Below, one piece after another: positions 8,511 to 37,160 of a stretch of DNA of 64,000 nt. Position 1 is the first letter of the stretch. Each line of letters starts with the position of its first letter. The translations under genes and the position numbers were made by a program. Origin of the DNA: Candidatus Hydrogenedentota bacterium (GTDB lineage: Bacteria; Hydrogenedentota; Hydrogenedentia; Hydrogenedentales; JAEUWI01); assembly GCA_016791475.1 (NCBI GenBank), contig JAEUWI010000010.1, positions 20,352 through 84,351 on the forward strand, written 5' to 3'. The notes under the pieces are model-generated. The model saw nothing but the letters and a program-made list of their open reading frames with translations, did no database searches and was not told the DNA's origin.

Positions 8511-8604
8511 TTTTAACGAATCTTTAGTACACACATCTGAGCCGGCAAATAAAACATGTTTTGCCAGCTTTTTTTTTGGTACTATGGTAGCCCTGCCCCC
8601 GGAC

Positions 8605-14837: not shown

Positions 14838-14896
14838 CGCGGATCCGCGATGGTACCAACCTAATTAGAACGGACTTAGGTTATCGAGGACCACGC

Positions 14897-15112
14897 CGGG
14901 TGCCACCTCAATCGAGCAACGCTCGTTTGGGCGTCATGTGGGAGGGAAAACTACTTGTGGACAAGTGAACTTAGATCCGGCTCGCGATCTAAGGGCGTTT
15001 TTTCATGGGGTTCACCGACGTAAACCAGCCCCCCGCCAGTTAAATTTAAAGCACCAGGGGTACCGCCGCACAAGGCACCCAAACGAGCGTTGCTCGATTG
15101 AGGTGGCACCCG
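14897..15112. repeat. 35-bp perfect inverted repeat pair (14897..14931 and 15078..15112) flanking a 146-bp core; MITE-like or large RNA hairpin
   Basis: CGGGTGCCACCTCAATCGAGCAACGCTCGTTTGGG and its exact reverse complement. Confidence 0.6.
14971..15003 (+). terminator. putative lon terminator hairpin plus T6 run inside the IR element
   Basis: TTAGATCCGGCTCGCGATCTAA hairpin then GGGCGTTTTTT. Confidence 0.45.
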
Positions 15113-15198
15113 AGGTTCCCTTACGGTACCGTTGCTTCGCATTTAACCCGGATTCTATCATTCAATCGCGGCGCCCCGCGTAACAAAGGTATGTCCAA

Positions 15199-15816
15199 GT
15201 GCAGGTAAATTCATCACGATTCGTGCTCAGCGCTCTCGACCCCGCCCACTACCCCAAAGACCGTCTTCCCGAGATCGCTTTCGTGGGACGTTCCAACGTC
15301 GGTAAGTCGAGCCTGCTCAATACCCTGCTCAACCGCAAGGGCCTGGCCAAGACCAGCGGTACCCCCGGCAAGACCCAGACCCTGAACTTCTTCAACATCA
15401 ACGAAAAGTTCTACTTCGTCGATCTGCCCGGCTATGGCTTCGCCAAAGTACCCAAGTCCATGAAGGATACCTGGAACAAAGTCATGGTGGAGTATCTCCA
15501 GACCCGCTCCAATCTCCGCATGGTGATTTCCCTCGTGGACGCGCGCCATGAGCCGAGCCCCCTGGACATCCAGATGCTCAACATCCTTGACGAGGCTTCG
15601 GTGCCCACCCTGGTCGTGGCCACCAAAGTGGACAAGCTCAAGCGCTCCCAGCGCAACAAGTCCCTGAACCTCATCCGGGAAACCCTGGGCCTGCCGGAGG
15701 ACTACCACGTGCTCCCTTTCAGTTCCGTAGATCGCGAAGGGGTAAAGGATCTCTGGGAGGTCATCGAAGATCAGCTTCAGACCCCGGAACGCGTCATCGA
15801 AAATGAAGAGGCGTAG
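15199..15816 (+). CDS. engB: ribosome biogenesis GTP-binding protein EngB/YihA/YsxC
   Basis: GRSNVGKSSLLN G1 motif, DLPGYG G3; follows lon as in B. subtilis lonA-ysxC. Confidence 0.88.
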   Translation: MQVNSSRFVLSALDPAHYPKDRLPEIAFVGRSNVGKSSLLNTLLNRKGLAKTSGTPGKTQTLNFFNINEKFYFVDLPGYGFAKVPKSMKDTWNKVMVEYLQTRSNLRMVISLVDARHEPSPLDIQMLNILDEASVPTLVVATKVDKLKRSQRNKSLNLIRETLGLPEDYHVLPFSSVDREGVKDLWEVIEDQLQTPERVIENEEA

Positions 15817-15896
15817 TGGGGCAGGGGGCGTGGACGGCGCACGGTCGATCCGACCCAACGGCGCCACGGCCCCGGGTCCAGTCGGTCACATCCCTG

Positions 15897-16568
15897 TCAC
15901 GCCACGACCCCGGGCATCGGCGCCAGACGCGACAATTCCTCCCGCTTCTTCCGGGCGATCAACTCCTCTTCATAGGCCAGCGTCGTCAACAGATAGCTGA
16001 AAGGAATGGTCGCCAGCAGGCCTATCCCGAAGCACAGGGCTCCCGCCATGTTCACCGCGATGATGACCAGGCCCAGCACAACCCAACGCTTGAAATTGGC
16101 CCAAACCAGGAGGCGGCTCTTTTCCATCGCCCCCCAGAAGCCGAGATTCTCGTCCAGGATAAAGAGATAGGTCACGGAATAGGTCATAAAGATGAGCAGC
16201 GGTGGAATAACCAGGGGAACTACGATCAGCGCCATGAGATTGATCAGAATATTGGCGAGGAAGGCGGGCAGAAAGTGCTCGAATCCCGAAAGGATGTCCG
16301 CCAGTTCCGTATTTTCGTTGCGCACGATCCGCTGGGATATCTTGAAGGCGCCAAGGATGAAGGGCCCGAGGAGGACGTTGCCGCTGATCGTCAGCAGGTA
16401 GTTGCCGGCAATCATGATCAACAGCAGAATGATGTGGGCACTCACCAACAGCAGGGCGTGGTCCCAGAGCAGCCCGAAGGCCCGGCGGACCAGTGGGCGG
16501 ATGCACAGATCGCTCATGCCGCAATGCTCGACCTCATTCGCGTGTTGGGAAGGCGCTTCGATGCGCAT
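15897..16568 (-). CDS. hypothetical polytopic membrane protein (DUF975/DUF4013-like)
   Basis: ORF track 15897..16724; start chosen at internal ATG (MRIEAPS...) with GGAAAGG RBS; multiple TM helices. Confidence 0.5.
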   Translation of the reverse strand: MRIEAPSQHANEVEHCGMSDLCIRPLVRRAFGLLWDHALLLVSAHIILLLIMIAGNYLLTISGNVLLGPFILGAFKISQRIVRNENTELADILSGFEHFLPAFLANILINLMALIVVPLVIPPLLIFMTYSVTYLFILDENLGFWGAMEKSRLLVWANFKRWVVLGLVIIAVNMAGALCFGIGLLATIPFSYLLTTLAYEEELIARKKREELSRLAPMPGVVA

Positions 16569-16717
16569 ACGTTGACCTTTCCAGCGTGCGCACATCGCAC
16601 GACACCCCATTATACCGCGCCTGTGCCCGGTCGCGCCTCCCCAGGGGGAGGGTTGGTCAAAAAGTGATTGATCGGGGCAAACCATGCTACCGTAAGCGGC
16701 AACGCAGGAGTATACAC

Positions 16718-17137
16718 ATGGCACGAGGGGATCACATCAAGGTGCGTCGTTACGGCGGGCTTTACAGCCACCACGGAATCGACATGGGCGACGGCACCGT
16801 CATCCATTTCTCCGGCGAACCCTGTCGGCGGGGCGACGCCCGGGTCTGCCGTGCGGATCTTGAATCCTTCCTGGCGGGCGGGCGGCTCACGGTGGTGCGC
16901 CATCGCGGGCCGGTGCGCCCCCCGGATGACGTGGCCGCCGCCGCCGAAGACGGCCTCCATCGGCAGGACTATTCCCTCCTGCACAATAATTGCGAACACT
17001 TCGCCACCTGGTGCAAGACGGGCCGCCGACACAGCGGGCAGGTGCGCCGCGCACTGCGGCTCGCAGGGGCCACCGCCGGCGCCTCGCTTGCGCTCCTGTG
17101 GCCCGTGCTCGCCGCGCGCAGGGCGACCTCGCGATAA
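16718..17137 (+). CDS. LRAT/H-rev107-type NlpC/P60 papain-like protein (139 aa)
   Basis: GDHIKVRRYGGLYSHHGIDMGDGTVIHF (His box) and NNCEHFATWC (catalytic Cys in NCEHF); GCAGGAG RBS; hydrophobic C-terminus. Confidence 0.7.
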   Translation: MARGDHIKVRRYGGLYSHHGIDMGDGTVIHFSGEPCRRGDARVCRADLESFLAGGRLTVVRHRGPVRPPDDVAAAAEDGLHRQDYSLLHNNCEHFATWCKTGRRHSGQVRRALRLAGATAGASLALLWPVLAARRATSR

Positions 17138-17191
17138 TTTCCTGGACGCGCCCACGCCACTGGACACCGACCGACTGACCCAAGGGAGATA

Positions 17192-17614
17192 TTGAACTCT
17201 ATGATCGAACTACTGAACACCGACGAGCAACGCGTGATGCTGGAACTGCTCCTTCACATTGCAAAGTCGGACGGCACCGTGAAGGATGTCGAACAGGAGA
17301 TTCTGGAGAACTATGCCACCCTGGTCGACCTTGATTTCTCCACCATCAACAGCAACCTCACGCCCGCCGAGCTCATCCCCCAGATTCCGAGCCCCGTCAG
17401 CCGGGCCATCGTCCTTCAGGAATTGCTTCGCATGTCCCATCTGGACGGCATCATCAGCCAGGGCGAGCACGCCGCCATCCTCGCCATCGCCGGCCAGATG
17501 GGCTTCCCCGATTCGGTCGTGCACCGCCTTGATGCCTGGGTGGTGGAGGGACTTCGCTGGGTATGGGAGGGCGAAGACATTCTCGACGAAATAGAGGCTG
17601 AATTCGGGGCGTAG
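17192..17614 (+). CDS. TerB-like (tellurite-resistance/DjlA N-terminal-like) domain protein
   Basis: 140 aa all-helical; LLLHIAKSDGTVKDVEQEILENYA...IVLQELLRMSHLDGIISQGEHAAILAIAGQMG pattern typical of TerB-like domains; assignment by recollection. Confidence 0.5.
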   Translation: MNSMIELLNTDEQRVMLELLLHIAKSDGTVKDVEQEILENYATLVDLDFSTINSNLTPAELIPQIPSPVSRAIVLQELLRMSHLDGIISQGEHAAILAIAGQMGFPDSVVHRLDAWVVEGLRWVWEGEDILDEIEAEFGA

Positions 17615-17961
17615 GGGGGGGCGCGCACCGCCGCACGGCCCCCTCAAAATGGGGGGGCAAGAAACACGTTTGTCTCGGATGCCCGCTCCGGCAAAGCCGG
17701 CGCCAATACGGCGGCATGTTCCGAGCGTCTTGTAAAGCTCTGCAATTCCCCAAGGCAGTTCTGAGGTACCCCCGCTTCATTTCAGGCTGTCACCCCGCCC
17801 TGAAGCGCCGTTGCGCCCTGGGCCCAAACCCTCATTAAGTCCTTTAAAATCAACTCCTTCGCACGTGAATCTCCAATTTGGCACGGACTATGCAATGCGC
17901 AAGGCAAACCGCCCTGTGGCGGATGCTGATGAGAGCAACTGTGTTGTAGATAAGGAGCACT

Positions 17962-19443
17962 GTGATGAATAAAATTAAATTTACCAAATCAACCCTCGGC
18001 CTCGCCGGCGCCGCCGTGGCCACCGCCGGTCTGTTTTCACTCTACGATGCCCCCGTGGCCCTGGGAAACGATGCGACCCCCGGTATCGCCGCGCTGCAAA
18101 ACCTCAGCGACACCTACGTGCAGGTCGCGGAGCAAACCTCCAATGGCGTCGTGTTCATCGAGATCAGCAAGACGATGGCGTCGCCCGCCGCGTTCGGCGA
18201 GGGCTTCGACGGCCCTGGCAGTCCCTTCCGCCACTTCTTCGGCCCCGGCGGTATCCCTGGATTTCGCCAGGGGCCCCAGGGCGACCAAATGCCCATGCCC
18301 GTGGGCACCGGATCGGGTTTCATAATTACCTCGGATGGTTACATCGTCACGAACAATCACGTGGCTGCGGAAGCGGATGGACTGAAAGTCACCCTGCAGG
18401 ACGGTCGTGTCTTTGACGCCACCGTCGTGGGCACCGATCCCCAGACTGAAGTGGCCCTTCTGAAAGTGGACGCCACCGGTCTTCCGACCGTTACCCTCGG
18501 CGACTCCGACAAGGTGCGCGTGGGCGAGTGGGTGCTGGCCGTGGGCAGCCCCTTCGGCCTCGACCACACCGTGACCTCTGGTATCGTCAGCGCCCAGGGC
18601 CGGAGTGAAGTCGGCATCGTGGACTATGCGAACTTTATCCAGACGGACGCCGCCATCAACCCCGGCAACTCCGGCGGCCCGCTGATTAACCTTCATGGCG
18701 AAGTCATCGGCATGAACACCGCCATCCTCAGCAGCAGCGGCGGCAGCAACGGTATCGGATTTGCCATTCCGGTGAATATGGTCAAGAGCGTCGTGGACGA
18801 TCTGAAAGACGACGGCAAGGTCCAGCGCGGTTACCTGGGCGTGCACATTCAGAATATCTCGCCCGAAATGTCCAAGTGGTTTGATATCGAAGCGGGCCAG
18901 GGCGCCCTCGTAGCCGAAGTCGCCGAGGGGTCACCCGCGGAACAGGCCGGCCTGCAGAAGGACGACGTCGTCGTCAGTATCGACGGCCAGGTCGTGAAGG
19001 ATGCCGGTGCGCTTCGCAGCCGCGTGGCCACCTCCGCCCCGAACAAGGAACTGAAACTGGAAGTTCTTCGAAATGGCGAACGGATGGAGAAGAGCGTGAC
19101 GCTCGGACAACTGGATTCTGATGGCGTGGCCAGCAGCGGAAATGCCCCGGCGGGCAGCCCGTCCCGCCTTGGCATACAACTCCAGAACCTGGACGAGAAC
19201 ATTGCGAACCAACTGGGCTTCACCGGTGACGGCGGTGTGGTGATTTCCGCCGTCGAGCCGGGTTCTCAGGCCGCCCGCGAAGGCCTCGCCCGAGGCATGG
19301 TCATCACGGAGGTAAATCGAATCCCCGTAAAAAACGTCCAAGAGTTCAAGGAAGCCCTGGAGAAGGGAAAGAAGGACGGATCGGTACTGCTCAACATCCA
19401 GCAGGAAGGCCATTCCCGCTACGTTGCGATGAAGCTCTCGTAA
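17962..19443 (+). CDS. htrA: Do-family periplasmic serine endopeptidase (HtrA/DegP/DegQ) with two PDZ domains
   Basis: catalytic triad regions TNNHV, D, GNSGGPL; two PDZ segments; signal peptide. Confidence 0.9.
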   Translation: MMNKIKFTKSTLGLAGAAVATAGLFSLYDAPVALGNDATPGIAALQNLSDTYVQVAEQTSNGVVFIEISKTMASPAAFGEGFDGPGSPFRHFFGPGGIPGFRQGPQGDQMPMPVGTGSGFIITSDGYIVTNNHVAAEADGLKVTLQDGRVFDATVVGTDPQTEVALLKVDATGLPTVTLGDSDKVRVGEWVLAVGSPFGLDHTVTSGIVSAQGRSEVGIVDYANFIQTDAAINPGNSGGPLINLHGEVIGMNTAILSSSGGSNGIGFAIPVNMVKSVVDDLKDDGKVQRGYLGVHIQNISPEMSKWFDIEAGQGALVAEVAEGSPAEQAGLQKDDVVVSIDGQVVKDAGALRSRVATSAPNKELKLEVLRNGERMEKSVTLGQLDSDGVASSGNAPAGSPSRLGIQLQNLDENIANQLGFTGDGGVVISAVEPGSQAAREGLARGMVITEVNRIPVKNVQEFKEALEKGKKDGSVLLNIQQEGHSRYVAMKLS

Positions 19444-19476
19444 GTAGCGCGCAAGATTGCAGGCTTCAGGTAAGGA

Positions 19477-19515
19477 AACCGGCCCGATCCTCAGGGATCG
19501 GGCCGGTTTATCGTC
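19477..19515 (+). terminator. Rho-independent terminator of htrA
   Basis: perfect 14-bp stem AACCGGCCCGATCC/GGATCGGGCCGGTT, loop TCAG, T-rich tail. Confidence 0.8.
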
Positions 19516-19585
19516 TGTAGTTTCGAGTGAAAAGGTATGGGTGCAGATCTGCTATTACCGATAATAATGATAGATAAATACAGTT

Positions 19586-20491
19586 GTGGGCTCCAGGTTG
19601 GAATTGGCTATACTTAATTTGCACAAAAAGTTAGCGCAACCCAACGAGGAACCCACAATGCTTGTAGAGAAGATGTTAGTAGCTGCCATGGCCGAATACA
19701 AGAAATTTTTGCTCGAATATTGCTCGGGTGCCGCGGAGCTGGAATTGTCACCGGCTTCGTCCGCTTTGATTGTATCGGGGCTTCACCAGGCTGCCAATGC
19801 GGCTTCAAAGGCGGCACTCCGCCTTTTCCTCGAGGCCAAGGACGAGACCGACGATCTGATTCGGGTCGGCCAGGATTCGTACCGTTTCAAGTTTTTGAGC
19901 GAGCGCGAGGCGCTGTCTCCCTGGGGTAAGATGCGGTTCGCGCGCAGGCTTTATCAGAATGCCAAGGACCAGTCCCACGTCCCATTGGATTCGGCTTGGG
20001 GCATGTCTGGCGAATTCATGATGGCTGAAGTACGCGAGGCGGTGGCTTTTGCCAGCGCCCACGTCACGCCCCAGGAGGTGGCCGAGCTGATGGAGAAGAG
20101 TGCTCAGTTCCACCCGCACCGCACCCAGATCCTGGAGGCGTTGGAGCGTATTGACGCACGGGTGTCGGATATGCGCGATTCCGTCGACGAACGCATACGC
20201 GAACAAGAGTCGGCGCCTGAGAATGTGCGCGTGCTCGTGGCCAGCATGGACGGCGCGAACGTGTTGCTCAACGAGCCTGGCAAAAAGCGAGGTCGCCCCG
20301 CAGAGCGCCCCAAAGGCGGTTCGGAGGAAGAGTCCAAGACCTCGTACAAGAACGCCATGGCCGGCTGCGTAATCCGACGCAAAGCGGCCACCGATTCCGA
20401 GCGAAAGCGGCCACTCGTTCCGACGCAAAGCGGCCATCCATTCCGAGCGAAGGCGGCCAGCGATTCCGACGGAAGGCGGCCACTTTTCTAA
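19586..20491 (+). CDS. hypothetical protein interrupted by IS21-family insertion (native part 19586..20374; reading frame resumes at 22822..22977)
   Basis: coding-like composition; last ~35 codons translate the IS terminal repeats; removing 20375..22821 restores an in-frame ORF ending at 22977. Confidence 0.55.
   Translation: MGSRLELAILNLHKKLAQPNEEPTMLVEKMLVAAMAEYKKFLLEYCSGAAELELSPASSALIVSGLHQAANAASKAALRLFLEAKDETDDLIRVGQDSYRFKFLSEREALSPWGKMRFARRLYQNAKDQSHVPLDSAWGMSGEFMMAEVREAVAFASAHVTPQEVAELMEKSAQFHPHRTQILEALERIDARVSDMRDSVDERIREQESAPENVRVLVASMDGANVLLNEPGKKRGRPAERPKGGSEEESKTSYKNAMAGCVIRRKAATDSERKRPLVPTQSGHPFRAKAASDSDGRRPLF
20375..20487. repeat. IS21 left-end multi-repeat (5 tandem ~22-23 nt units, AAAGCGGCCAC-N5-TTCCGA[GC]CG)
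   Basis: seen directly; inverted copies at 22775..22814. Confidence 0.7.
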
Positions 20492-20572
20492 GGGGGAGCG
20501 CAGGCGGCGCGGGATAACGTTGATCGGGCACAATCGTGCTCCTTTTCGGCTTTTTAGAGCGAGGAGGTTGCG

Positions 20573-22099
20573 ATGCCCGCGGAGCGGATATCCATGCGCA
20601 AGATTCGAGAAGTGTTGCGGTTGAGTTTGGGCGGGCGGCTGAGCGCCCGCGCGGTAGCGGTTAGTTGCGGGATGGGCCGGACGGCCGTGCTGGAGTATGT
20701 GCGGCGGGCGGCCCGCGCCGGGCTGTCGTGGCCGCTGCCGGAGGGGTTGGCGGACGATACGCTGGAGGCCTTGCTGTTTCCGCCCGCCGCACCGGCCGAG
20801 GGCGACCGCCCGCTGCCGGTGTGGCAGGAGGTGTATGACTCGCTCACGGGCAAGGGGGTGAGGCTGTACCTGTTGTGGGAGGGGTACCGGGCGCTGCATC
20901 CGGCGGGCTACGGGTACAGCCGCTTCTGCGAACTATACCGGGACTGGGCGGGCAAGCTGCCGGTGTGGATGCGGCAGGAGCACAAGGCGGGGGAAAAGCT
21001 GTTCGTGGATTATGCGGGCATGACGATGCCGGTCACGGACCGCGAGACGGGCGAGGTCCGTCAGGCCCAGATCTTCGTGGCGGCGCTGGAGGTCAGCGGC
21101 TACACTTTCGCGGAGGCGACCTGGACCCAGACCCTGCCCGACTTCATCGCCTCCCACGTCCGCGCCCTTGAATTCTTCGGCGGCTGCCCGGCGCTGGTGG
21201 TGCCGGACAACCTGCGCAGCGCCGTGTCGCGCCCGTACCGCTACGGCCCCGAGATCACCCCGGTCTACACGGAACTGGCGGTCCACTACGGCGTGGCGAT
21301 CCTGCCTGCGCTGGTGCGCAAGCCTCGGGACAAGGCCAAGGCGGAGTCGAGCGTCCTAGGCGTGGAGCGACGCGTCCTGGCCGCGCTGCGGGAGCGGACC
21401 TTCATCAGCCTGGCGGAACTCAACGCGGCTATCGCCCCGTTACTGTTGGTGTATAACATCCGCGCGTTCCAGCAGCGGGAGGATTCGCGCCGGAGCCAGT
21501 TCGAGGCCTTCGACGCGCCCGCGCTAGAGCCCCTTCCCCGGACCCGCCACGAGTACGCGGAGTGGCTCAAGGCCCGCGTCAGCCTCGACTACCACATCCG
21601 CGCCGACGGCCACTGTTACAGTGTGCCGTACTGGCTCGTGAAGGGGGAGGTTCAGGTGCGTATGACCGCCACCCATGTGGAGATATTCCTCAACAATACC
21701 AGGGTCGCCAGCCACCTCCGCTCCCACCAGAAGGATCGCCACAGCACATGCCGCGAGCACATGCCCAAGGGCCACCAGGCCCACGCCGAATGGCCCCCCG
21801 AACGCATCAAACACTGGGTCGGGCAGGCTGGCCCCGCCACCGCCGAGGTGGCCCAGGCCATCATGGACGCGCGCCCCCATCCCGAGCAGGGATTCCGCGC
21901 CAGCATGGGCCTCAAGCGCCTGGGCGACACACTGGGCGCGGAGCCCCTCGAAGCCGCGTGCGCCCGCGCCCCGGCCCTGCAATCACCGTCCTACCAGAGC
22001 GTCAAGCCCATCCCTGCGAAGGGACTCGACCGCGAGCCCCCGCCCCAACTCGAGCCACCCATGCCGCTCATCGAGCACGAGGCGGCTTATTACCAATAA
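20573..22099 (+). CDS. istA: IS21-family transposase IstA
   Basis: N-terminal HTH (MRKIREVLRLSLGGRLSARAVA...), DDE catalytic region DYAGMTMPV...EATWTQTLPDF...VVPDNLRSAV; 508 aa. Confidence 0.88.
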   Translation: MPAERISMRKIREVLRLSLGGRLSARAVAVSCGMGRTAVLEYVRRAARAGLSWPLPEGLADDTLEALLFPPAAPAEGDRPLPVWQEVYDSLTGKGVRLYLLWEGYRALHPAGYGYSRFCELYRDWAGKLPVWMRQEHKAGEKLFVDYAGMTMPVTDRETGEVRQAQIFVAALEVSGYTFAEATWTQTLPDFIASHVRALEFFGGCPALVVPDNLRSAVSRPYRYGPEITPVYTELAVHYGVAILPALVRKPRDKAKAESSVLGVERRVLAALRERTFISLAELNAAIAPLLLVYNIRAFQQREDSRRSQFEAFDAPALEPLPRTRHEYAEWLKARVSLDYHIRADGHCYSVPYWLVKGEVQVRMTATHVEIFLNNTRVASHLRSHQKDRHSTCREHMPKGHQAHAEWPPERIKHWVGQAGPATAEVAQAIMDARPHPEQGFRASMGLKRLGDTLGAEPLEAACARAPALQSPSYQSVKPIPAKGLDREPPPQLEPPMPLIEHEAAYYQ

Positions 22100-22136
22100 C
22101 ACAACACCCATGCACCAAGAAAGGAAACACACACCC

Positions 22137-22751
22137 ATGCTCCTTCACCCGACCCTGGACAAGCTCGCCGCCAAACTGCGCCAGAGCGCAACCATCGAGG
22201 ACATCGACCTGCGCACGCCGCGCGGCATCGACAAAGTCGCCCTGCTCGCCCTCGCCGGCTGCGCTTGGCTGCGCAAGCATCACAACCTCATCATTACCGG
22301 GCCCACCGGAACCGGCAAAAGCTACATCGCCTGCGCTCTGGGAGACCGCGCCTGCCGCGAGGGCTACCGCGTCCTCTACTACCGCGCCCCCCGGGCTCTT
22401 CCAGGAGCTCGCCATAGCCCGGGGCGACGGCTGCTACGACCGCCTCCTGCGCGCCCTCGCCCGCACCGACCTCCTCATTCTCGACGACTGGGGCACCGCC
22501 CCCTGACCGACGAACAGCGAAAAGACCTCTTCGAAGTCGTCGAAGACCCCTACGACCGCAAGAGTACCCTCATCGCAGCACAACTACCCACCCAGCACTG
22601 GCACCAGCTCATCGGAGACCCAACACTCGCCGACTCCCTGCTTGACAGACTCATCCACAACGCCTACGCCATCACTCTAAAGGGGGAGTCCATGCGAAAG
22701 AAAAGAGCCCAAAACTTGATTCCCGAAGCGCCATCGGGTACGAACTCATAG
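22137..22751 (+). pseudogene. istB: IS21-family helper ATPase IstB disrupted by two compensating frameshifts in homopolymer runs
   Basis: Walker A ITGPTGTGKSYIA in frame A to ~22385; LFQELAIARGDGCYDRLLRALARTDLLILDDWGTAP in frame B to 22506; LTDEQRKDLFEVVEDPYDRKSTLIAAQ back in frame A; extra G in CCCCCGGG run, missing C in C6 run. Confidence 0.7.
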
Positions 22752-23074
22752 ACAATTGAAACGCCCGCGTCGCTGCGCTCCGAAGCCTGGCCGCCTTCGC
22801 TCGGAATCGGTGGCCGTAATCGTCGGTATATGCAGAGGGGAAGCGCGTTCGACGCGACTTCCCCTCGCTCCAGTACGACGCCCGCGCCACGCCGAAATCA
22901 GCGGCCGCGATCCGCCGTTTCCGATGGACTACTCGTGCCGAAATATGTATGGCACTGCTAAAATTCCGGGTTTTTAGGCAATCGCTTCGCCTTCAACCGG
23001 GTAAACGCGCGCGCCTGATGGATAGGGGGATTTTCTCCCGTGGCTCCATATACGCTCAGGTCGCCGGGCCTTCC

Positions 23075-24532
23075 TCATTCGGCACCGTGGAGTTTGAGTG
23101 ATATGACTTCCACGTAGTAATACCCCGGCCGTGAAGATATTGTGCCCTCCACATCAACGATCCTGCCCGCCACGGTTTCATCGATTTCGAGGGTAGAGCC
23201 CGCCGGACCTGCGAGAAGTATTATACGCCCTTCCATGTTTGAGCCGGTGAGGACACCGAGAGGAACACCACCCTTTAGGCTGGCGATGGCGCAGCGACGA
23301 CGCGATTGTCCCGAAGATGACCAGTGTGCACCGAGATAGCACTTCGTTGACAGAAGCTCTCCACTGAAGTTGACCGTCCCTCCAATCGCCTGCGGGGCGG
23401 TCACGGCGACGGTGGTTGTGTCCCCGATAGGAAGTGGCGGGGTACTTACCTCCATCTCAAGCATCGCAGTCGTACCACGATATCTAATCCTACCTTCAAC
23501 GCTGACATGAAGGTCGTCAAACTGCCGCCAATTCGACGGAACCCCCTGATGCCCGGTGCCACAGAGTAATACGTACTGGCCCAGACTAGGGTTTTCGTTC
23601 CAATCGGGGGATAGGTATATGGAAGGAAAAGGCCGAGAAGTGTAGATTCCGCGAAGCACCGTCCGGGAGTATACATCCGAAAAAGCCGTTTTAACCATTG
23701 GCGGCGCACTTGCCAGCGCGCCCGTGATTGCAACGAATACGATCATGGTCGCTGCGGTTCCCGCCGGTACAGCGGGCAGGCCATCTCTTCGTATCGACGC
23801 CCAACACGAATTTCTATTGTTGAGAGCGCTCGGTATTGCACTCGTTGGTGGCACGCTGTCTGCCTTTTGGGAAAATGCTTGTGCAACGATAAGCGTGATT
23901 GCGAACGATACCGGGCCAGCAATCAACAGAGTTTCGTAGACAGGATTTGAGTCGTACTGATAAGCACCCAGTGCGAACCAGATCCAGGCGGAGGCATAAG
24001 CAGGGTAGACGAGCGCCTGCACGCCCCGCCAAACTCCGGATGTCCTTTGTATGCGCCAATAGCGGTATCCCGTACTCGCGATCAACCCTGAAGTAAATAG
24101 TGCCAATAGGCCAAAAGCCTCAGAGGGTAATTCGCTGACACTAGTTCGTTGTTCGGATAGTTCTACAACAAATCTTGTGTAATCCGCCAGTAGACCGGTG
24201 AGATCAACCCCACGCTCACCAGTGTCTACAATCGCCAGATGAAGCATGCCCATCATGAAAGCAGCAAGAACTATAGCCGGACGGTGCTTGTAAAGCGGGT
24301 AGAATGAATTGTGTAATCGCGAAAGGGCCGCTGAACTCGCCGCCATTTGAAAGTAAAGCAGTGTGAGCAAACTCGTCACACGGCCAAGTTCCGCCATGAC
24401 AGGGATTGTATGTTGCAGTATTTCGGACACAGTAAAGTACGCGACGGCGCTCGCCATAGTACAAATAAGCAACAGCAGTGCAAAAATAAGGGCTTGGGCC
24501 TTGTCCTCGGGCGTCTCGTCGTATGGCATCAC
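23075..24532 (-). CDS. hypothetical integral membrane protein (about 8 TM) with ~220-aa C-terminal beta-rich extracytoplasmic domain
   Basis: ORF track; GC about 52%, lower than backbone; ATGA-coupled to upstream 205-aa gene; no family recognised. Confidence 0.55.
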   Translation of the reverse strand: MMPYDETPEDKAQALIFALLLLICTMASAVAYFTVSEILQHTIPVMAELGRVTSLLTLLYFQMAASSAALSRLHNSFYPLYKHRPAIVLAAFMMGMLHLAIVDTGERGVDLTGLLADYTRFVVELSEQRTSVSELPSEAFGLLALFTSGLIASTGYRYWRIQRTSGVWRGVQALVYPAYASAWIWFALGAYQYDSNPVYETLLIAGPVSFAITLIVAQAFSQKADSVPPTSAIPSALNNRNSCWASIRRDGLPAVPAGTAATMIVFVAITGALASAPPMVKTAFSDVYSRTVLRGIYTSRPFPSIYLSPDWNENPSLGQYVLLCGTGHQGVPSNWRQFDDLHVSVEGRIRYRGTTAMLEMEVSTPPLPIGDTTTVAVTAPQAIGGTVNFSGELLSTKCYLGAHWSSSGQSRRRCAIASLKGGVPLGVLTGSNMEGRIILLAGPAGSTLEIDETVAGRIVDVEGTISSRPGYYYVEVISLKLHGAE

Positions 24533-25146
24533 TTGAAGTTCGCCTCTGGACTCTTGCTCAACGAGTAGGTTTCCGTGCGATTCTCAAGACTGAGGTATAG
24601 CGTCAAATGGCCCCGCGAACGCATATGAGACTCAGGCAGAGGAATCCAGATACTACCCGTGCCCCCGAGTAATCCCAACACAACCGCTTCTTCCGGTGGA
24701 TTGCCGTCAGCATCTAAGTGTCCAGACCAGATCAAGACAGCGGGGGGGCACACGTGACCCTCAAGTGGGTCAAATCGGAGACCGTAGTGACCTAGTGCCT
24801 TGATCAGAGCAACCTCCATGGGATATGACGGAAACGACTGTCCAAAGTGTGCTCTCGCTCGCGCCCAAGGGGCTTCATTTACCAACCCGCTGGGAACCGG
24901 AAACTGCCTGCGTGATGAGCTCGAAAACGGATCAACTATCAGTGTTAAGACTAGGAGCAAGAGAGCGGTAGTTACTCCGACTGCTACATTCCACGTATGG
25001 AATCCAATTCGGCGGGAGAGCGTTCGATCTTCGATGGGCTTCTCACAGTGACTGTTGTGGTGCCGCCGCACAGACCAGCCCATGAGAGCGAATATTTTCA
25101 AGGCTTGGGTGGAGCGCGGAGGAAGATTCGATATATCGTTCGACAT
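24529..25146 (-). CDS. hypothetical single-pass membrane protein (205 aa)
   Basis: ORF track; one TM (VAVGVTTALLLLVLTLIV); low GC; first gene of two-gene operon. Confidence 0.5.
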   Translation of the reverse strand: MSNDISNLPPRSTQALKIFALMGWSVRRHHNSHCEKPIEDRTLSRRIGFHTWNVAVGVTTALLLLVLTLIVDPFSSSSRRQFPVPSGLVNEAPWARARAHFGQSFPSYPMEVALIKALGHYGLRFDPLEGHVCPPAVLIWSGHLDADGNPPEEAVVLGLLGGTGSIWIPLPESHMRSRGHLTLYLSLENRTETYSLSKSPEANFK

Positions 25147-25499
25147 TGTCTATCACTCCATAGTTCCTGTGAAGATGTATTCCACCCAAAGCTTAATCTT
25201 GGTAAACACTCACTGGATACACCGGTGCTAAGAAGATCAGACTTAGCAGGTGACGACTTCACTCGTGGCGATTCGACCGGAACGAGGTGAATCTGATTCA
25301 CCAGCCCCTCCGGACCCGGCGAACCAATGGCCAGTTAGCATACAGGTCGATAGGTTCACATTTCCGCTTCCACGGGACGAAACCACGCCCTTGATAAAAA
25401 AAGGCCGAGGGCTGGAAAGTTAAGCCCTCGGCCTCGTGGTATCCCTCATTCTGCTCCGCGAGATGACTCTCATCACCAGCGGTCAGAAGGTCTTACCGA

Positions 25500-26522
25500 T
25501 CAATAATACGTGCAGACCAATTGCGACAGCATGTAGTCGGAACGGGACTTGGGGTCAGCGCCGTACTTGATGAAGCGCACACTGCCATCCATGAAGAGCA
25601 CGTTGGAGCCACCGGGAACGTGGTTGAACTCGATATCGCCAGGTTCTTCCATCAACTGCATGTCGTACCAGACGGGAACCATGGACTGAGCTTTGGCGCT
25701 GCCTGCGGCATTGTTGATATCGGTGATCAGGAAACGTTCAATGCCTTCCCGTACGCGATACATAGAGATGTTGGTATTGATGGAGTTCGGCGGATATTCG
25801 CCAGCGACGCCAGCACCCAGCGCGGTCAGGGTATCAAACATCGTGTTGACCTTGTGGGTATAATCCGCAGTGCCCATGATGTTGCCCCAGTCGTGAACCG
25901 TCCAATTGTAAGGATCAGCCTGGTTCACAAAGTGACTGTTGTCGAAGGTCCAAGGCCAGTATCCATAGCTGGACTCAGTGCGGATGTAGCAACCGGGAAC
26001 GGAGAAACCGCCCTTGGTGCCAGCAAACGCGTTGCGCGCACGGCACGCGTCTTCGGAAGGATTCGGGGTCACAGCCGCACCACCGCGAATGGCGGCAGGC
26101 ACCCAGCTCGGACCACCAGTAGCCCACGCATCATTGATTACGCGGAAGTTGTTGGCATCCGAGCCAGTACCGCCATCCTTAGCCGACGGGCAAATAAGTA
26201 CCTGCAAGTCGGTCAAGTATTCGGGGTAGATGGCATAGGTGTCAATCGTGTCGGACCACGTGCCGCTCGTTACCGTGTCGGAGCTGCTGTAGTTGGTGTA
26301 GTTCTGGGGGAACACACCACCTGCCGACTCATTGGAAAACATTTTGAAGACAAGGCCCATCTGCTTCAGGTTGTTCTGGCAGCTGGCGCGACGCGCGGCT
26401 TCACGGGCGCGGGCCAGAGCGGGGAGCAGGATGGCGGCAAGAATACCGATGATGGCAATAACTACCAGCAATTCAATGAGGGTGAAGCCACGCTTCGATT
26501 TCGGACGTCTAAGGGTTGTCAT
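25500..26522 (-). CDS. prepilin-type N-terminal cleavage/methylation protein with DUF1559 (H-X9-DG) domain, pseudopilin-like
   Basis: [46 protein letters not shown]-terminus; C-terminal [12 protein letters not shown] motif typical of DUF1559 proteins abundant in Planctomycetes. Confidence 0.85.
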
Positions 26523-27071
26523 AACTCTCTTTCCTTTAAAGATTAGATGAATTGAAGACCAGTGCAGGTATGACTCAAATAGCTACTGTGAGAGCGAAAT
26601 ACCTCCTTTCAAAGGTTATGAGTAATGTTCTTCAACTGAGTGTATTACAGGGCCACACCCCACGCACTGATTCGACCTTGCGCGTGGTACGACCATATAA
26701 TCGACTGGACGGAAGACGGTAGCTCCCCAGTTGTCACTGCGGTCTGGCGGTACCCAACCGGCCAGAGGAAACCACACATGTCATTCCGTGTTTCTCTTGC
26801 GGAGAATGGCTTAGTATAGCATCTTTTTTTCAAAAGTAAAGCAAAATATTAGTTGCCCCGTCATACCACCCCAAGTGCTTGTGCGACAAGGCTCTGGACG
26901 CGTTCATACCTCCGAAAAAAGCCTGATCGGCAACGCAATTCAGCGCGTGGGGAACCCGCTGTGAAAAAAATATGCAATACTCCGCATAGGCAACGTCAAT
27001 GGTGAATTGAACGGCGGGATCGCGCGGATCAGACCCCTTTATTTGTGGTCGCACTTCTGATATGATAGGCC

Positions 27072-28538
27072 GTGATACTACATATGGTGTATTGGAAGGC
27101 GAGCATGACCGGTCAGAAGAGAAGTGTGCACTTTGTCGGGGTAGGCGGGATCGGTATGAGCGGACTCGCCGAGATTCTCCTGAACCTCGGCTATGAGGTT
27201 TCTGGCTCCGATCTCGCCCCTTCACCCATCACCACACGACTCGAATCGCTCGGACTCGTCTTCCATCAGGGCCACAGCGCCCAGCACATCGGAAATGCCG
27301 GAATTCTTGTCGTATCCGCCGCCGTTGCCGCGGACAACGCCGAAATCTGCGCCGCGCGTTCGCGCAATATCCCCGTCATGCACCGTAGCGACCTGCTGGC
27401 CGATCTCATGCGGCTCAAACCCAATGCGGTTGCCGTCGGCGGCACCCATGGCAAAACCACCACCACCTCCATGATCAGCGCGATTCTGGACGTGGCCAAC
27501 ATCGGGGCCACCAGCATTGTCGGCGGTATTCTTCACCGAAGCGGCACGAACGCGCGCTGGGGTACCGGCGCCTATCTCGTGGCCGAGGCCGATGAGCACG
27601 ATGGTTCCTTCCTGCGGCTCCACCCGACGATCGCCGTGGTGACCAATATTGACGCGGAACATCTGGAATATTATGGCACCCTCGATCAGATCAAACGCGC
27701 CTTCACCGAATTCTGCAATGGCGTGCCCTTCTATGGCTACGCCATCCTCTGCGGGGACGATCCGGCCTGCGCCTCGATCGTCAAGGACCTGGACAGTATC
27801 ACGCTGACCTACGGCCTCGGCGAGGGCCACTCTCTCCAGGCGGCCAACGTGCGCCTGGCCGATCCCGATCCCGAAGCCTCCATCGCGGATCGCCTGAAGA
27901 GCGCGGCCACCGTTTTCGATGTGATCAGCTATGACGAGCGCTTGCCCGAGACCGGCCGCCTCGGCACGATCACCGTGCACGCGCTGGGCGAAAACAATGT
28001 GCGCAACGCCCTCGCCGCCTGCGCCGTCGGGCTCTGTCTCGGCATGCGCTTTCCCGCCATCGCCGCCGGCATTCGACACTTCGATGGCGTGGGGCGCCGC
28101 CTCCAGTATTGCGGTGAAGTGCGTGGCGTAACCGTGGTTGAAGACTACGCCCACCATCCCACCGAAATCGCAAGCACGCTCGAAGCCGTGCGCTGGCTTA
28201 AGCCCCGCCGCGTGCTCGCCGTTTTTCAGCCCCACCTCTACAGCCGGACCAAGTATTTCTGCGATGATTTCGCGCGGGTACTTTCCGCGCTGGATCGCGC
28301 CATCGTCACCGAGATCTATCCGTCCCGCGAAGCCCCACTTCCGGGCGTCGACGCCGGTATGATCGTGGATGCGGCCCACCGCCTCGGCGCACCCCACGTG
28401 GAACTTATAAAGGACATGAACACCGTGCCGGGCGCGCTCGCGCCCGCCCTGGAAACAGGGGATCTCGTGCTCATCCTGGGCGCGGGCGACATTAACCGAA
28501 TTGCAAAGCCGCTCCTCGCGGCCCTGGGAGATCGATGA
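27072..28538 (+). CDS. murC: UDP-N-acetylmuramate--L-alanine ligase
   Basis: VHFVGVGGIGMSGLAEIL, GTHGKTTTTSM Mur ligase motifs; GTG start per ORF track, alternative ATG at 27105. Confidence 0.9.
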   Translation: MILHMVYWKASMTGQKRSVHFVGVGGIGMSGLAEILLNLGYEVSGSDLAPSPITTRLESLGLVFHQGHSAQHIGNAGILVVSAAVAADNAEICAARSRNIPVMHRSDLLADLMRLKPNAVAVGGTHGKTTTTSMISAILDVANIGATSIVGGILHRSGTNARWGTGAYLVAEADEHDGSFLRLHPTIAVVTNIDAEHLEYYGTLDQIKRAFTEFCNGVPFYGYAILCGDDPACASIVKDLDSITLTYGLGEGHSLQAANVRLADPDPEASIADRLKSAATVFDVISYDERLPETGRLGTITVHALGENNVRNALAACAVGLCLGMRFPAIAAGIRHFDGVGRRLQYCGEVRGVTVVEDYAHHPTEIASTLEAVRWLKPRRVLAVFQPHLYSRTKYFCDDFARVLSALDRAIVTEIYPSREAPLPGVDAGMIVDAAHRLGAPHVELIKDMNTVPGALAPALETGDLVLILGAGDINRIAKPLLAALGDR

Positions 28539-29329
28539 TGCCATTGGTCGCCGCCCACATGACGGGAAGGCGCCGCTCCGGCGGGTTTCGCCGGCGATTG
28601 CGCCAGTCCGTATTCTTTGTCGAGGCCGGGTTCTGCGTCTTCGCCGTCGCCCTCTTCGTCTACGCCTTCTATCACTTCGCCATCAACTCGCCCCGTTACC
28701 GCGTCCAGGACATCATTGTTTTCGGCAACACCGCCGTCAGCTCGGAGGAGGTCGTGGCCGCCACCCAGATCACCACGGCGGACAGCCTCCTTTTTCTGGA
28801 CAAGGCCGCCGTGGCCAAGCGCGTGGCCTCCATCCCTTATGTGGCGTCGGCCGAAGTGCAGCGGGAACTGCCCAGCACCCTCATTATCCACCTCACCGAG
28901 CGCCAGGCCGCGGCCACGCTCCTGGCGGGCCGCCGCGCCTTCCTGATTGATCGCGACGGCGTCGTGCTCAAGGAAAGCGATCCGGGCGCGCCGGTGCTCG
29001 AGCCCCTCATCACCAACGCGCCCGGACTCGGCGTCATCAGCGCCGGTATCCGCCTCGAAGAGCCCGCGGTCCAGGAGGCGCTCAAGCTCTGGGAGGCCTA
29101 TTCGCAGGCGCCCATCGCCTCCGAGGTCAACCTCTCGGAAATTTCCGCCGAAGGCCCCATGAACCTCACCATGATTTGGGACGAAGCCCCCTACGAAGTG
29201 CGCTGGGGCCGCAGCGACTATAAGAAGCAGGCCGAACGCCTCAGTATTCTCTGGAAGGAAAAGGGCGGCCTGTTGCCCTGCCAGGAGTACCTCGATTTGC
29301 GTTTCGATCAGGACTTGGTATGCCGATGA
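28535..29329 (+). CDS. ftsQ: cell division protein FtsQ/DivIB (POTRA domain)
   Basis: N-terminal TM then POTRA (RYRVQDIIVFGNTAVSSEEV); position between murC and ftsZ. Confidence 0.75.
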   Translation: MMPLVAAHMTGRRRSGGFRRRLRQSVFFVEAGFCVFAVALFVYAFYHFAINSPRYRVQDIIVFGNTAVSSEEVVAATQITTADSLLFLDKAAVAKRVASIPYVASAEVQRELPSTLIIHLTERQAAATLLAGRRAFLIDRDGVVLKESDPGAPVLEPLITNAPGLGVISAGIRLEEPAVQEALKLWEAYSQAPIASEVNLSEISAEGPMNLTMIWDEAPYEVRWGRSDYKKQAERLSILWKEKGGLLPCQEYLDLRFDQDLVCR

Positions 29330-29405
29330 TTGCCCGCATGGGCCTAGTTGAGCCGGACTTTAACGGGGTGCTACCATGGCGCCCTGAGCACGGGGAGTTC
29401 TCTAC

Positions 29406-35192: not shown

Positions 35193-36242
35193 ATGTCCGA
35201 AAAACCGTCTGCCAGCCCGAACCGCATCACCGCTGTTGACCAACTCCGCGGCTACGCCATCTTCGGCATGCTTGTCGTCAACGCCAGCGGCTACTTCAAC
35301 TTCAAGACCGAGCAGATCAGCCACCACCGCGACTGGTTCTCCTACGCCGACACCATCGCGCCCCTCTTCCTCTTCGTCGTCGGCATGGGCATGCGCCTTT
35401 CCTGGCTGAATCGCGCCGAAAAAGTCGGTAGTTCCGAAGCGCGCTGGGCCATGGCCAAGCGATTCACCGTCCTCGTTCTCATCGGCTTCACCATCTACGG
35501 CGGATGGCTCTGGGACGCCCTCACCGATATTGGCCTCTGCGGACTGCTGGCCCTTTTTCTCATCGACAAAGCTCCCGCCATCCGCATCGGCGCCGCCTTC
35601 GTCTACCTTGGCATCTATCAGGCCATGTTCTCCTGGACTATCTACGGCGACTGGGTCACTCGCGCCATCAGCTTCACCGGCGACAACGCCGCGCCCGTGC
35701 CCCTGTTGATCCGGGCCATTCCCCAGTGGGAAGAACTCTTCGAGGTCTCCCTCAATGGCGGTCCGCTTGGACCTCTGAGCTGGGTGATGATGCTTCTCTT
35801 CGGCTCCCTCGCCTATGATCTCCTCGCCGCGCGCGATGAAAAGAAATTCATCAGCGGCTGCCTGGCGTGGGGGATTGGCCTGTGCGTGGCGGGCTACCTC
35901 ATCCACATCCCCTGGGGCGAGGCCAAACCCGAATGGCCCACCACGGCCTACCTCATGACCGCACCCTTCCCCCTATGGTCCACCGGCCTCTGCTTCCTCA
36001 CCCTGCTGATCTTCTATCTGATCTGCGATAAAGTCGGCTTCGAAATCCCCACCTTCACCGCCCTCGGCATGAACCCCCTCTTCATCTACATCCTCCAGTC
36101 CCTCGTGCTCAATACCCTCGAAGATTTCGAAATCGAAGGCCTCACCCGCGCCACCGGCATCCCCCTCTTCATCGCCTTCTACGGAGCCATCGCCGGACTC
36201 GCCTGGTGGATGAAACAACGCAAGATCTTCGTGAAGATATAA
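35193..36242 (+). CDS. DUF1624/HGSNAT-like acyltransferase-family membrane protein
   Basis: AVDQLRGYAIFGMLVVN N-terminal signature; ~10 TM. Confidence 0.6.
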   Translation: MSEKPSASPNRITAVDQLRGYAIFGMLVVNASGYFNFKTEQISHHRDWFSYADTIAPLFLFVVGMGMRLSWLNRAEKVGSSEARWAMAKRFTVLVLIGFTIYGGWLWDALTDIGLCGLLALFLIDKAPAIRIGAAFVYLGIYQAMFSWTIYGDWVTRAISFTGDNAAPVPLLIRAIPQWEELFEVSLNGGPLGPLSWVMMLLFGSLAYDLLAARDEKKFISGCLAWGIGLCVAGYLIHIPWGEAKPEWPTTAYLMTAPFPLWSTGLCFLTLLIFYLICDKVGFEIPTFTALGMNPLFIYILQSLVLNTLEDFEIEGLTRATGIPLFIAFYGAIAGLAWWMKQRKIFVKI

Positions 36243-36410
36243 ACCCCATAGGGACAGGGTCGCCCCACGACGCCGAATCGGCAAAGCCAACTTCGCGTCA
36301 CACTAGGCGCAAAAATACGAGTCATGCACCCTAACCGGCGGGCCTGCTCTGGAAATAAACAGGCAGGCCGCGAAGAGAGATGCGATGACTACCGTCAACA
36401 CTGGAACGTA

Positions 36411-36499
36411 CCCCCCGTACCACCCCGCAAGCGGGGGGACCAGGAGGTTCGTTCTTGTGAGTAAGGTCTCCCTGCTCGCGGGGGGGGGGGGAGGGGGGT
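36411..36499. repeat. G/C-hairpin repeat element (CCCCGCAAGCGGGGGG-ACCAGGAGGTTCG...) ending in a G12-A-G6 homopolymer tract; family copy at 54001..54137
   Basis: shared CCCCGCAAGCGGG-GGACCA-GGTTC architecture with the 54-kb tandem repeat. Confidence 0.55.
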
Positions 36500-36524
36500 A
36501 AAGCTCGGACCTGATTTTCTTGAT

Positions 36525-37160
36525 CTATGGGTGACCCGAAGCGTCATGGGTGACGGTCTTCTCTAAACTTCGGGGTACAAAAGTCGCCAGGAGATAGCGC
36601 TTGCCGCCTTCCAGCGTTTTTCTTGCCAAAGCGGGATCGCTGATCGTGCGTGCCATGGTCAAGGTGCCGACGAGGGCCGAATATAAGTTAATGGCCTTCG
36701 CCAGGTTTTCCTCCGGTGGATCATCGGGGAACTGATCCTTAAGCGCGGCGGCGAACATCCCATAGATCCGGATCATGTGCTGCTCATACAGCGCGCGATG
36801 TCCCGCCTTACACCGCTGCATGTCCGTGCTCAGGGACGTAAATGCACAACTCGACCCAACATCGGTCAGACTGCGTTCGGAAAGATGATCTTCTATCATC
36901 CCTTTGAGTGCGACGGAGCCCTCCACTTCAAATCGCATTGCCAGGTTCGCTTCCAGGCGGGCCAGATCGTGGCAAACCGCCTGGGCAAAAAGATCGTCCT
37001 TGGATTTGAAGTGGCTGTAAAGCGCGCCGCGCGATAGACCCGCGTATTTCATGATTTGATCCGTGCCCGCCTCGCCGCGACCGTGCTTCTTCAGATAGGC
37101 GATGGCCCGGTCCAGAATCACCGTCTTCAGTTTCTCTTTCTCGCCCTTGCGGGTCTTCAT
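36525..37160 (-). CDS. TetR/AcrR family transcriptional regulator
   Basis: HTH LKTVILDRAIAYLKKHGRGEAGTDQIMKYAGLSRGALYSHFKSKDDLF. Confidence 0.85.
   Translation of the reverse strand: MKTRKGEKEKLKTVILDRAIAYLKKHGRGEAGTDQIMKYAGLSRGALYSHFKSKDDLFAQAVCHDLARLEANLAMRFEVEGSVALKGMIEDHLSERSLTDVGSSCAFTSLSTDMQRCKAGHRALYEQHMIRIYGMFAAALKDQFPDDPPEENLAKAINLYSALVGTLTMARTISDPALARKTLEGGKRYLLATFVPRSLEKTVTHDASGHP

Follow-up and report, generated by a model that had tools for sequence, protein, structure and literature searches.

Between the core genes htrA and murC, a 64-kb stretch of Candidatus Hydrogenedentota DNA (contig JAEUWI010000010.1; hereafter the window, to which all coordinates refer) carries an accessory segment whose most unusual feature is a pair of overlapping genes for membrane proteins of 485 and 205 amino acids (aa). 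Our account of the segment, to which we give a probability of about 0.55, is that it combines an insertion sequence (IS) scar, an old and dispensable envelope cassette with a non-redox periplasmic complex, and a core intergenic spacer.

According to this account, nested IS debris follows the htrA terminator, where an ISKra4-like transposase fragment is cut by an IS21 element with a broken istB. Upstream of murC, a three-gene envelope cassette then encodes a DUF1559 protein, a small β-sandwich protein, and a tandem-OB protein with seven transmembrane (TM) helices. The small and large proteins are translationally coupled and are divergent members of a widespread, uncharacterized two-gene module. 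In canonical members, the large subunit may act as a transmembrane electron wire, with a cytoplasmic Rieske [2Fe-2S] domain, a di-heme ferric reductase domain (FRD), and a periplasmic OB domain that carries a near-invariant Cys3His site. In the window lineage, the Rieske domain is gone, as are three heme histidines out of four and half of the Cys/His residues, and we infer that electron transfer was lost with them. Most likely, the 485-aa protein persists under relaxed constraint in a membrane-anchored complex with a periplasmic binding or scaffold role and no redox activity, and this complex may be linked to the neighboring pseudopilin-like protein.

As a genomic island, the segment is ordinary: a variable spot, riddled with ISs, that lies between core genes. 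The main value of the locus lies in the family to which the pair belongs, which is large (about 400 cluster representatives at E ≤ 1e-10), uncurated, and distinctive in its architecture and its dedicated partner. Comparison contigs are designated L001, L002, L003, L008, and L015 to L021, and related proteins P0002 and so forth; P0002 is the ortholog of the 485-aa protein and is encoded on L001.

An uncurated family with an FRD fold

An earlier sequence-only reading of this DNA had assigned the pair to no recognizable family. This holds for the curated libraries, as neither protein matched Pfam or NCBIfam, the Pfam search including PF01794 and the Rieske models at E ≤ 0.1. It does not hold for an exhaustive profile search, which returned 1452 cluster representatives (50% identity clusters) at E ≤ 1e-3, with 401 at E ≤ 1e-10; relatives of the 485-aa protein score on both PF01794 (Ferric_reduct) and PF00355 (Rieske). 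A word-indexed protein search with the 485-aa protein returned, apart from the query, no more than an ortholog and a pair of distant FRD-Rieske proteins. The link to PF01794 runs exclusively through intermediates, namely, the profile search and P0003 (E 1.7e-14), a 613-aa protein with Ferric_reduct and Rieske domains. In BLASTP, residues 70 to 198 of the query align with the FRD of P0003 and residues 294 to 449 with its C-terminal region. The family includes proteins of ~600 aa with an FRD, a Rieske domain, a TM helix, and a C-terminal domain; proteins of ~480 to 515 aa that, like the window protein, combine the FRD, the TM helix, and the C-terminal domain without Rieske; and proteins of ~250 aa that consist of the TM helix and the C-terminal domain alone, the gene for which directly follows an FRD-Rieske gene in 2/2 cases examined.

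Structure prediction, a check proposed by the sequence-only reading, resolved the anatomy of the 485-aa protein. An AlphaFold2 (AF2) model built on 105 family sequences (predicted local distance difference test [pLDDT], 88.4; predicted template modeling score [pTM], 0.87) comprises a six-TM domain with the FRD fold (residues 1 to 220), a disordered linker, a seventh helix (TM7; residues 257 to 273), and a tandem OB-like domain (residues ~290 to 481). With Foldseek, the membrane part matched STEAP2/4/1 (E 2e-3 to 8e-3; probability, 1.0) and the NOX5 TM domain (probability, 0.98 to 1.0), and the β-rich part gave weak matches to two-OB-fold single-stranded DNA-binding proteins, RPA, RMI, and PriB. 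The linker is predicted to be cytoplasmic, as judged from the topology of FRD proteins and from basic residues that precede TM7; the Rieske domain of canonical relatives would likewise be cytoplasmic and the OB-like domain periplasmic. In the sequences read by eye, no twin-arginine motif precedes TM7 that would indicate export of a periplasmic Fe-S domain via the twin-arginine translocation (Tat) pathway, although no dedicated predictor was run.

With the FRD superfamily (YedZ/MsrQ, bacterial FRE, STEAP, and NOX; PF01794), the window protein shares the six-TM bundle, and its sequence clearly descends from proteins with matches to PF01794 and PF00355. Its canonical relatives carry histidine pairs in TM3 and TM5, 12 to 13 residues apart, and four conserved heme-coordinating histidines are regarded as the hallmark of FRD proteins (PMC3591440). 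The combination of FRD and Rieske has been catalogued as model M4 (Zhang et al. 2013; PMC3591440). In contrast, the window protein has no PF01794 match, retains one of the four heme histidines, and lacks Rieske, while featuring an extra TM helix, a periplasmic tandem OB-like domain, and a dedicated small partner. Profile searches of the PDB returned the Rieske ferredoxin domain, which is missing from the window protein, and STEAP weakly, with nothing for the OB domain; the latter also had no sequence match in Pfam, NCBIfam, or the PDB. The family is undescribed in that neither the OB domain nor the partner has a model, a name, or a solved structure in the libraries searched.

A distant relative from a cultured organism illustrates how the architecture varies. 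In Rhizobium leguminosarum WSM1689, RLEG3_RS31990 and RLEG3_RS31995 (annotated as "Rieske 2Fe-2S domain-containing" and "hypothetical") are homologs that cover 86% of the query (27% identity) and likewise have the FRD and the C-terminal OB domain, but the protein is split over two genes (FRD-Rieske, then TM helix and OB), the Rieske domain is kept, and neither a 245-aa partner nor a DUF1559 neighbor is present. This split version (L021 7911-9778, on plasmid NZ_CP007050.1) should be tractable for genetics; it is preceded by an SDR gene and followed by genes for a TetR regulator, an extracytoplasmic function (ECF) sigma factor with a DUF1109/NrsF anti-sigma factor, and a chlorite-dismutase-family protein. 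The gene for P0003 adjoins a resistance-nodulation-division (RND) efflux set (ACR_tran, OEP, and a CusB/CzcB-type adaptor with an HMBD domain), a neighborhood that points tentatively to a connection of the periplasmic Cys3His domain with metals.

A dedicated small partner

For the 205-aa protein, which had been read as single pass, AF2 indeed gives one TM helix (residues ~47 to 70) and a periplasmic β-sandwich (residues ~97 to 195; pLDDT of the C-terminal domain, ~90). Foldseek matches to this model were generic and Ig-like only, and there was no PDB sequence match for the protein. Checking co-occurrence, as the earlier reading had also suggested, proved informative: in seven further contigs, homologs of the partner (32 to 57% identity) immediately precede the large gene (L001, L015, L016, L017, L018, L019, and L020), including contigs where the large gene is of the Rieske type. 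Partner and large gene overlap or abut by 1 to 4 nt in L001, L015, L017, L018, L019, and L020, and in the window the small gene (24529-25146) overlaps the large one (23075-24532) by 4 nt, whereas the arrangement in L016 rests on reading across a scaffold gap. The tight overlap and strict co-occurrence of the genes suggest that the two proteins form a stoichiometric complex.

Canonical partners are ~245 aa long and have two extra N-terminal hydrophobic segments, which the versions in the window and L001 lack. No frameshifted N-terminal part with two TM segments was found upstream of 25146 in any frame. Two word-indexed searches of a 5.8-billion-protein collection seeded with the 205-aa protein returned one relative and then six, but not its own open reading frame (ORF), and the first ~45 residues show no conservation in L001. 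Either the start has been annotated elsewhere, or annotation of this metagenome-assembled genome (MAG) may have missed the gene.

Loss of cofactor ligands and accelerated change

The residues that define the canonical electron path are largely gone from the window protein. In a comparison with P0002 and up to 30 other family members, the first heme position (86) is alanine in the window and leucine in P0002 against histidine in 28/30 others; position 172 is glutamine in both (histidine in 27/30) and position 185 is tryptophan and alanine, respectively (histidine in 30/30). Only H98 is retained in the window, and here P0002 has serine, all 30 others having histidine. The window protein therefore keeps 1/4 of the heme histidines and P0002 0/4, and no bis-His site is conserved in the window/L001 clade. 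A further histidine, at position 156, is present in 30/30 others and in P0002 but is tyrosine in the window. In the alignment, the Rieske block of ~110 residues is deleted not only in the window protein and P0002 but also in P0006, P0007, P0010, and P0099. The Cys3His motif of the OB domain (C398, H411, C414, and C418) is ~99% conserved over ~100 sequences; with R411 and S418, the window retains 2/4 motif residues, although the β-rich domain itself is present and confidently modeled.

The window copy has also changed faster than its ortholog. Tajima relative-rate tests with seven outgroups gave 38 to 44 unique changes in the window against 15 to 25 in P0002, all in the same direction, and a test against the family consensus gave 28 and 6, respectively (χ² 14.2). 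Of the members seen, the window copy is the most degenerate, and its rate of evolution is about double that of P0002.

Such a pattern could mean that the pair are decaying relics, incipient pseudogenes with their ORFs still open. Near-invariant residues kept in the ortholog have been lost (R411, S418, and Y156), the rate is elevated twofold or more, the G+C content at third codon positions (GC3) of the large gene has fallen toward intergenic values, ISs have inserted just downstream of the pair, and the small protein is without the two N-terminal TM helices of canonical partners. We nevertheless consider decay unlikely, since both ORFs are intact over 2.1 kb with the 4-nt coupling overlap kept, the AF2 model is confident, and the ratio of nonsynonymous to synonymous substitution rates (dN/dS) of the large gene relative to L001 is 0.22 to 0.26 in TM and OB domains alike (htrA, 0.075). 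Moreover, L001 shares the shortened small protein and the heme-ligand loss, which points to old changes that have been tolerated under selection. Whatever its present activity, the window copy is a natural loss-of-cofactor variant and as such a useful contrast for study of the family.

An accessory and probably old pair at a variable junction

To place the locus among its relatives, species-representative genomes were scanned with HtrA as the seed, which yielded five useful relatives. HtrA of the window is 92% identical to that of L002, L003, and L008, and HtrA identity places L001 as an outgroup to all four. In L002, L003, and L008, nucleotide homology to the window reaches as far as the end of the htrA terminator (19509-19516). 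With L008, homology restarts at 26329, inside the DUF1559 gene past its conserved N-terminal ~65 residues, and continues at 83.7% over 26329-29399 through the AT-rich spacer, murC, ftsQ, and ftsA. The gene order in L008 is htrA, an IS200-family gene, the DUF1559 gene, the spacer, and murC, the interval between htrA and DUF1559 holding repeat-rich DNA and the IS200/IS605-family transposase gene instead of the pair. In L003, the same IS200-like gene follows htrA but is split by IS1634, the region beyond is rearranged, and the pair is again absent. Hence, the gene order is not the same in all relatives, and the accessory status that the sequence-only reading had proposed for the segment is borne out, as is its content of mobile elements (IS21 and the ISKra4-like fragment).

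In contrast, the proposal that the pair was acquired horizontally, in the sense of a recent event, does not agree with the situation in L001. There, the homolog of the small gene (57% identity, with a 4-nt overlap) is followed by the gene for P0002, the only close homolog of the 485-aa protein (53% identity), and then by the htrA ortholog in convergent orientation, with no IS in between. Since the pair has an identical position and orientation in an outgroup, an ancestral pair that was lost once is a more parsimonious history than insertion on two occasions. Between the window and L001, synonymous divergence (dS) is similar for the large gene (1.34) and htrA (1.35), both values being near saturation. 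We conclude that the pair is accessory, old, and dispensable and is not a recent acquisition.

The low GC3 of the pair is not peculiar to the window. In other contigs with homologs of the pair (L001, L017, and L018), GC3 is below that of the neighboring genes, so that low GC3 is at least partly a trait of the family; the large gene has a GC3 of 0.54 in the window and 0.65 in L001. From these sequences, the low GC3 looks like a family property or a result of relaxed constraint and not like a sign of foreign origin.

It is rather improbable, then, that the whole stretch is a horizontally acquired island with the pair, perhaps together with the DUF1559 gene, as a novel envelope, receptor, or immunity cargo. 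This would account for the absence of the pair from the closer relatives L008 and L003, for its GC3 of 0.54 to 0.56 compared to ~0.77 in typical genes, for the IS elements that abut it, and for the mosaic DUF1559 gene, which past about residue 65 is nearer to L016 than to L008 and suggests cassette exchange. It is at odds with the conserved position beside htrA in the outgroup, with a dS similar to that of htrA, and with the low GC3 common to homologs elsewhere. The hallmarks of an island are also missing: there is no integrase in the segment, IS transposases being the only such domain matches; no flanking direct repeats emerged from a repeat search; no tRNA gene lies within 10 kb; and no Rfam family or tRNA gene lies inside or adjoining the segment. 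The IS21 element, with its higher GC, is a separate and later insertion. As to the kind of module, the envelope part of the earlier suggestion agrees with predicted envelope proteins that have extracytoplasmic domains, but a receptor or immunity role found no support: PADLOC matched neither protein of the pair, nor the DUF1559 protein, nor the interrupted ORF at the segment's left end, and a phage collection had no match for the pair. A plasmid collection contained only the distant Rhizobium homologs of the pair, and metagenome contig scans with alignments A1 and A7 gave no matches.

Four different IS families are found at the post-htrA junction within one lineage, from which we conclude that it is an IS insertion hot spot. 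The DNA of the relatives at this junction has peculiarities of its own. L008 (636-1560) and L003 (11798-14131) contain tandem repeat-like sequence in which the peptide MHTLS(T/I)SRHWAKF recurs in one frame. In L003, murC synteny is lost beyond the IS1634-split gene, and downstream of the rearranged htrA locus (14860-17637) lies a gene for a 925-aa secreted protein with very long (GE)n tracts, which read on the opposite strand as (SP)n and similar.

The DUF1559 neighbor and a possible function

The window contains a single prepilin-type gene, and it adjoins the pair. Its product was correctly recognized as a DUF1559 pseudopilin, matching the SBP_bac_10, N_methyl, and HX9DG models over 25500-26522, and the protein itself is ordinary: like other DUF1559/HX9DG prepilin-type proteins of the Planctomycetes-Verrucomicrobia-Chlamydiae (PVC) group and allied phyla, it has an N-terminal methylation motif, SBP_bac_10, and a C-terminal HX9DG. 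What sets it apart is its recurring adjacency to the pair and, in comparison with L008, a mosaic structure. The gene has a core 5′ end and an L016-like remainder with a breakpoint at 26329; its product shares 71% identity with the counterpart in L016 and, beyond the shared N terminus, 42% with that in L008. In L016, the DUF1559 gene is followed by the small and large genes, and in L015 a fragment encoding a DUF1559-like C terminus lies downstream of the pair. Because the gene resembles that of L016, while the murC-proximal gene of L008 is only 42% identical, the window allele looks like a recombinant that may have traveled with the pair. Repeated adjacency of this kind is one of the few contextual clues for the huge DUF1559 family; the literature on DUF1559 and on Hydrogenedentes yielded nothing useful.

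Taking these threads together, a bolder reading can be put forward tentatively. The canonical module, a small 3-TM partner with a large subunit that comprises di-heme FRD, Rieske, TM7, and tandem OB with Cys3His, could be an undescribed transmembrane electron-transfer system that brings electrons from the cytoplasm to a periplasmic metal or cluster site. In the Hydrogenedentes branch (window, L001, L015, and L016), a pseudo-reductase that has lost its cofactors may have been reused as a periplasmic binding platform together with DUF1559. If true, the very large DUF1559 family would thereby gain its first functional partner.

Very improbable, in our view, is that the 485-aa protein is still a redox enzyme, with one heme or a quinone or flavin held by noncanonical ligands (e.g., H83, H98, and H74) and a donor supplied in trans, as the well-modeled FRD fold, the retained H98, the additional nearby histidines H74 and H83, and the precedent of FRD proteins that operate with a single heme (STEAP and MsrQ) have to be set against the lack of a Rieske domain, of a redox partner gene nearby, and of any ligand conserved in the clade, P0002 having 0/4 canonical histidines and serine at position 98.

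Several points weigh against the account that we favor, that of an old envelope cassette with a non-redox complex. We infer the mechanism for a family in which no member has an annotated or experimental function. P0002 keeps all four Cys3His residues (4/4), so that this site may have retained its importance in the clade. The window copy may already have ceased to function. Vertical descent, as read from synteny, rests on the single short contig L001 (3.4 kb), and co-divergence with htrA fits the near-saturated dS values without being proven by them. The GC3 of the pair is the lowest in the window, and a foreign origin that predates the split between the window and L001 is possible. The connection to DUF1559, finally, rests on three contigs (window, L016, and L015), and in the window a terminator-like hairpin (25393-25443) separates the DUF1559 gene from the pair, which speaks against an operon.

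The Rieske-type relatives are found in different company. Their neighbors include genes for 3β-HSD/SDR, DinB_2, TANGO2, and DedA proteins and an Acetyltransf_5 gene followed by an acyltransferase gene. In L017 (1-5569) and L019 (1-9302), this takes the form of a conserved cluster with, in order, 3β-HSD/epimerase, small partner, FRD-Rieske-OB, DinB_2-like, TANGO2, and DedA/VTT genes, the DinB_2-like gene having a weak Pfam match in L017 and none recorded in L019. In L019, the cluster continues with the Acetyltransf_5 (PF13444) and acyltransferase genes. The cluster may represent a lipid- or thiol-related envelope pathway.

Organization and composition of the segment

Table 1. Features of the htrA-murC interval and its flanks
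Feature	Position	Strand	Evidence
htrA, DegP-type serine protease, two PDZ domains	17962-19443	+	Pfam Trypsin_2 E 2e-36, PDZ_2 E 1e-26
htrA terminator hairpin, perfect 15-bp stem, 4-nt loop	19476-19509	+	Inverted repeat
Putative ISKra4-like transposase N-terminal fragment, ~260 codons	19586-20365	+	NCBIfam NF033572, below cut-off
Interrupted ORF holding ISKra4-like similarity	19586-20491	+	ORF list, NF033572
IS21-family element, probably defective	about 20366-22834	+	istA, istB, terminal repeats
istA, IS21 transposase, 508 aa, ORF intact	20573-22099	+	NF033546 243 bits; Mu-transpos_C_2 E 9e-20
istB, AAA+ helper, frame broken	22110-22751	+	PF01695 E 1e-42, in two stretches
Large membrane protein, 485 aa, JNK74_07350	23075-24532	-	AF2 model, family homology
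Small partner, ≤205 aa, start uncertain	24529-25146	-	4-nt ATGA overlap of its stop with the start of the large gene
Terminator-like hairpin and T-run after the DUF1559 gene	25393-25443	-	Inverted repeat, 9-nt loop
DUF1559 prepilin-type (pseudopilin-like) protein, 340 aa	25500-26522	-	Pfam SBP_bac_10 and N_methyl, TIGR04294 HX9DG
AT-rich divergent intergenic spacer, DUF1559 gene/murC	26523-27071	.	GC 0.47-0.49
murC (then ftsQ, ftsA), core right flank	27072-28538	+	Mur_ligase N, M, and C domains

Much of the layout given by the sequence-only reading stands (Table 1), including the AT-rich junction after the htrA terminator (GC 0.48 to 0.49 at 19400-19850, past the hairpin), the IS21 element, and the two overlapping minus-strand ORFs of the membrane pair. 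Other parts needed revision. The gene described as interrupted by an IS is indeed an interrupted ORF (19586-20491), but it is itself a transposase fragment: its match to the ISKra4 model NF033572 (E 5e-11) covers profile positions 25 to 213 of 422 and scores 42 bits, well short of the 205-bit NCBIfam cut-off. We regard it as a truncated, distant ISKra4 relative by sequence, and no plausible frame continuation of its 3′ part was found past the right end of IS21.

The IS21 assignment is supported by IstA, which exceeds the NCBIfam cut-off for NF033546 (160 bits), by an adjacent IstB AAA+ gene, and by terminal inverted repeats with internal repeats. The left end, TGCGTAATCCGACG..., and the right end, ...CGTCGGTATATGCA, were both inferred by eye. 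Four 23-nt direct repeats lie at 20373-20487, and the right-end arm (22787-22816) matches them inverted at 90 to 97%. Departures from a typical IS21 copy are the broken istB, the missing target-site duplication, which was looked for around the element and not found, and the loss of the 3′ part of the adjoining ISKra4-like gene. A GTAATC direct repeat that had been considered as the duplication more likely belongs to the inverted repeats. Frame mapping showed that the Walker-B segment of istB (22396-22503) sits in a different frame from the rest. The frame shifts at a C6 run (22387-22392) and at a C5 run (22494-22498), and the shifts compensate each other; the break is either real decay or a homopolymer error of MAG assembly or polishing. 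The 240 bp between the end of IS21 and the stop codon of the 485-aa gene (22835-23074) have no match in relatives, including the intergenic DNA of L001, and may represent residual ISKra4-like DNA or else the native 3′ sequence.

The description of a low-GC island applies to part of the segment only. Compared to the mean genome GC of 0.61, the stretch from ~23000 to 27000 is low (GC ~0.53), and the pair is atypical, its GC3 of 0.54 to 0.56 being the lowest among the window's confident genes, most of which have ~0.75 to 0.84. IS21, however, has a GC of 0.65 to 0.70, exceeding the genome mean, and a GC3 of 0.88 in istA. The AT-rich spacer of about 500 bp, which had been taken as the end of the island, does exist, but homology to L008 has already resumed at 26329, and murC beyond it is 95% identical to its L008 counterpart. 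Because the spacer is conserved, with a similar AT-rich dip before murC in L008, 26523-27071 is the core divergent promoter region of murC and the DUF1559 gene and not an island edge.

Other patches of reduced GC occur in the window (1718-2503, 36000-40000, and 51516-52766; GC 0.55 to 0.57, GC3 0.55 to 0.67), and compositional dips are thus not peculiar to the htrA-murC segment. Three tRNA genes (Gly-GCC, Lys-CTT, and Leu-TAG) are clustered at 8347-8689, in a kilobase with a GC of 0.54.

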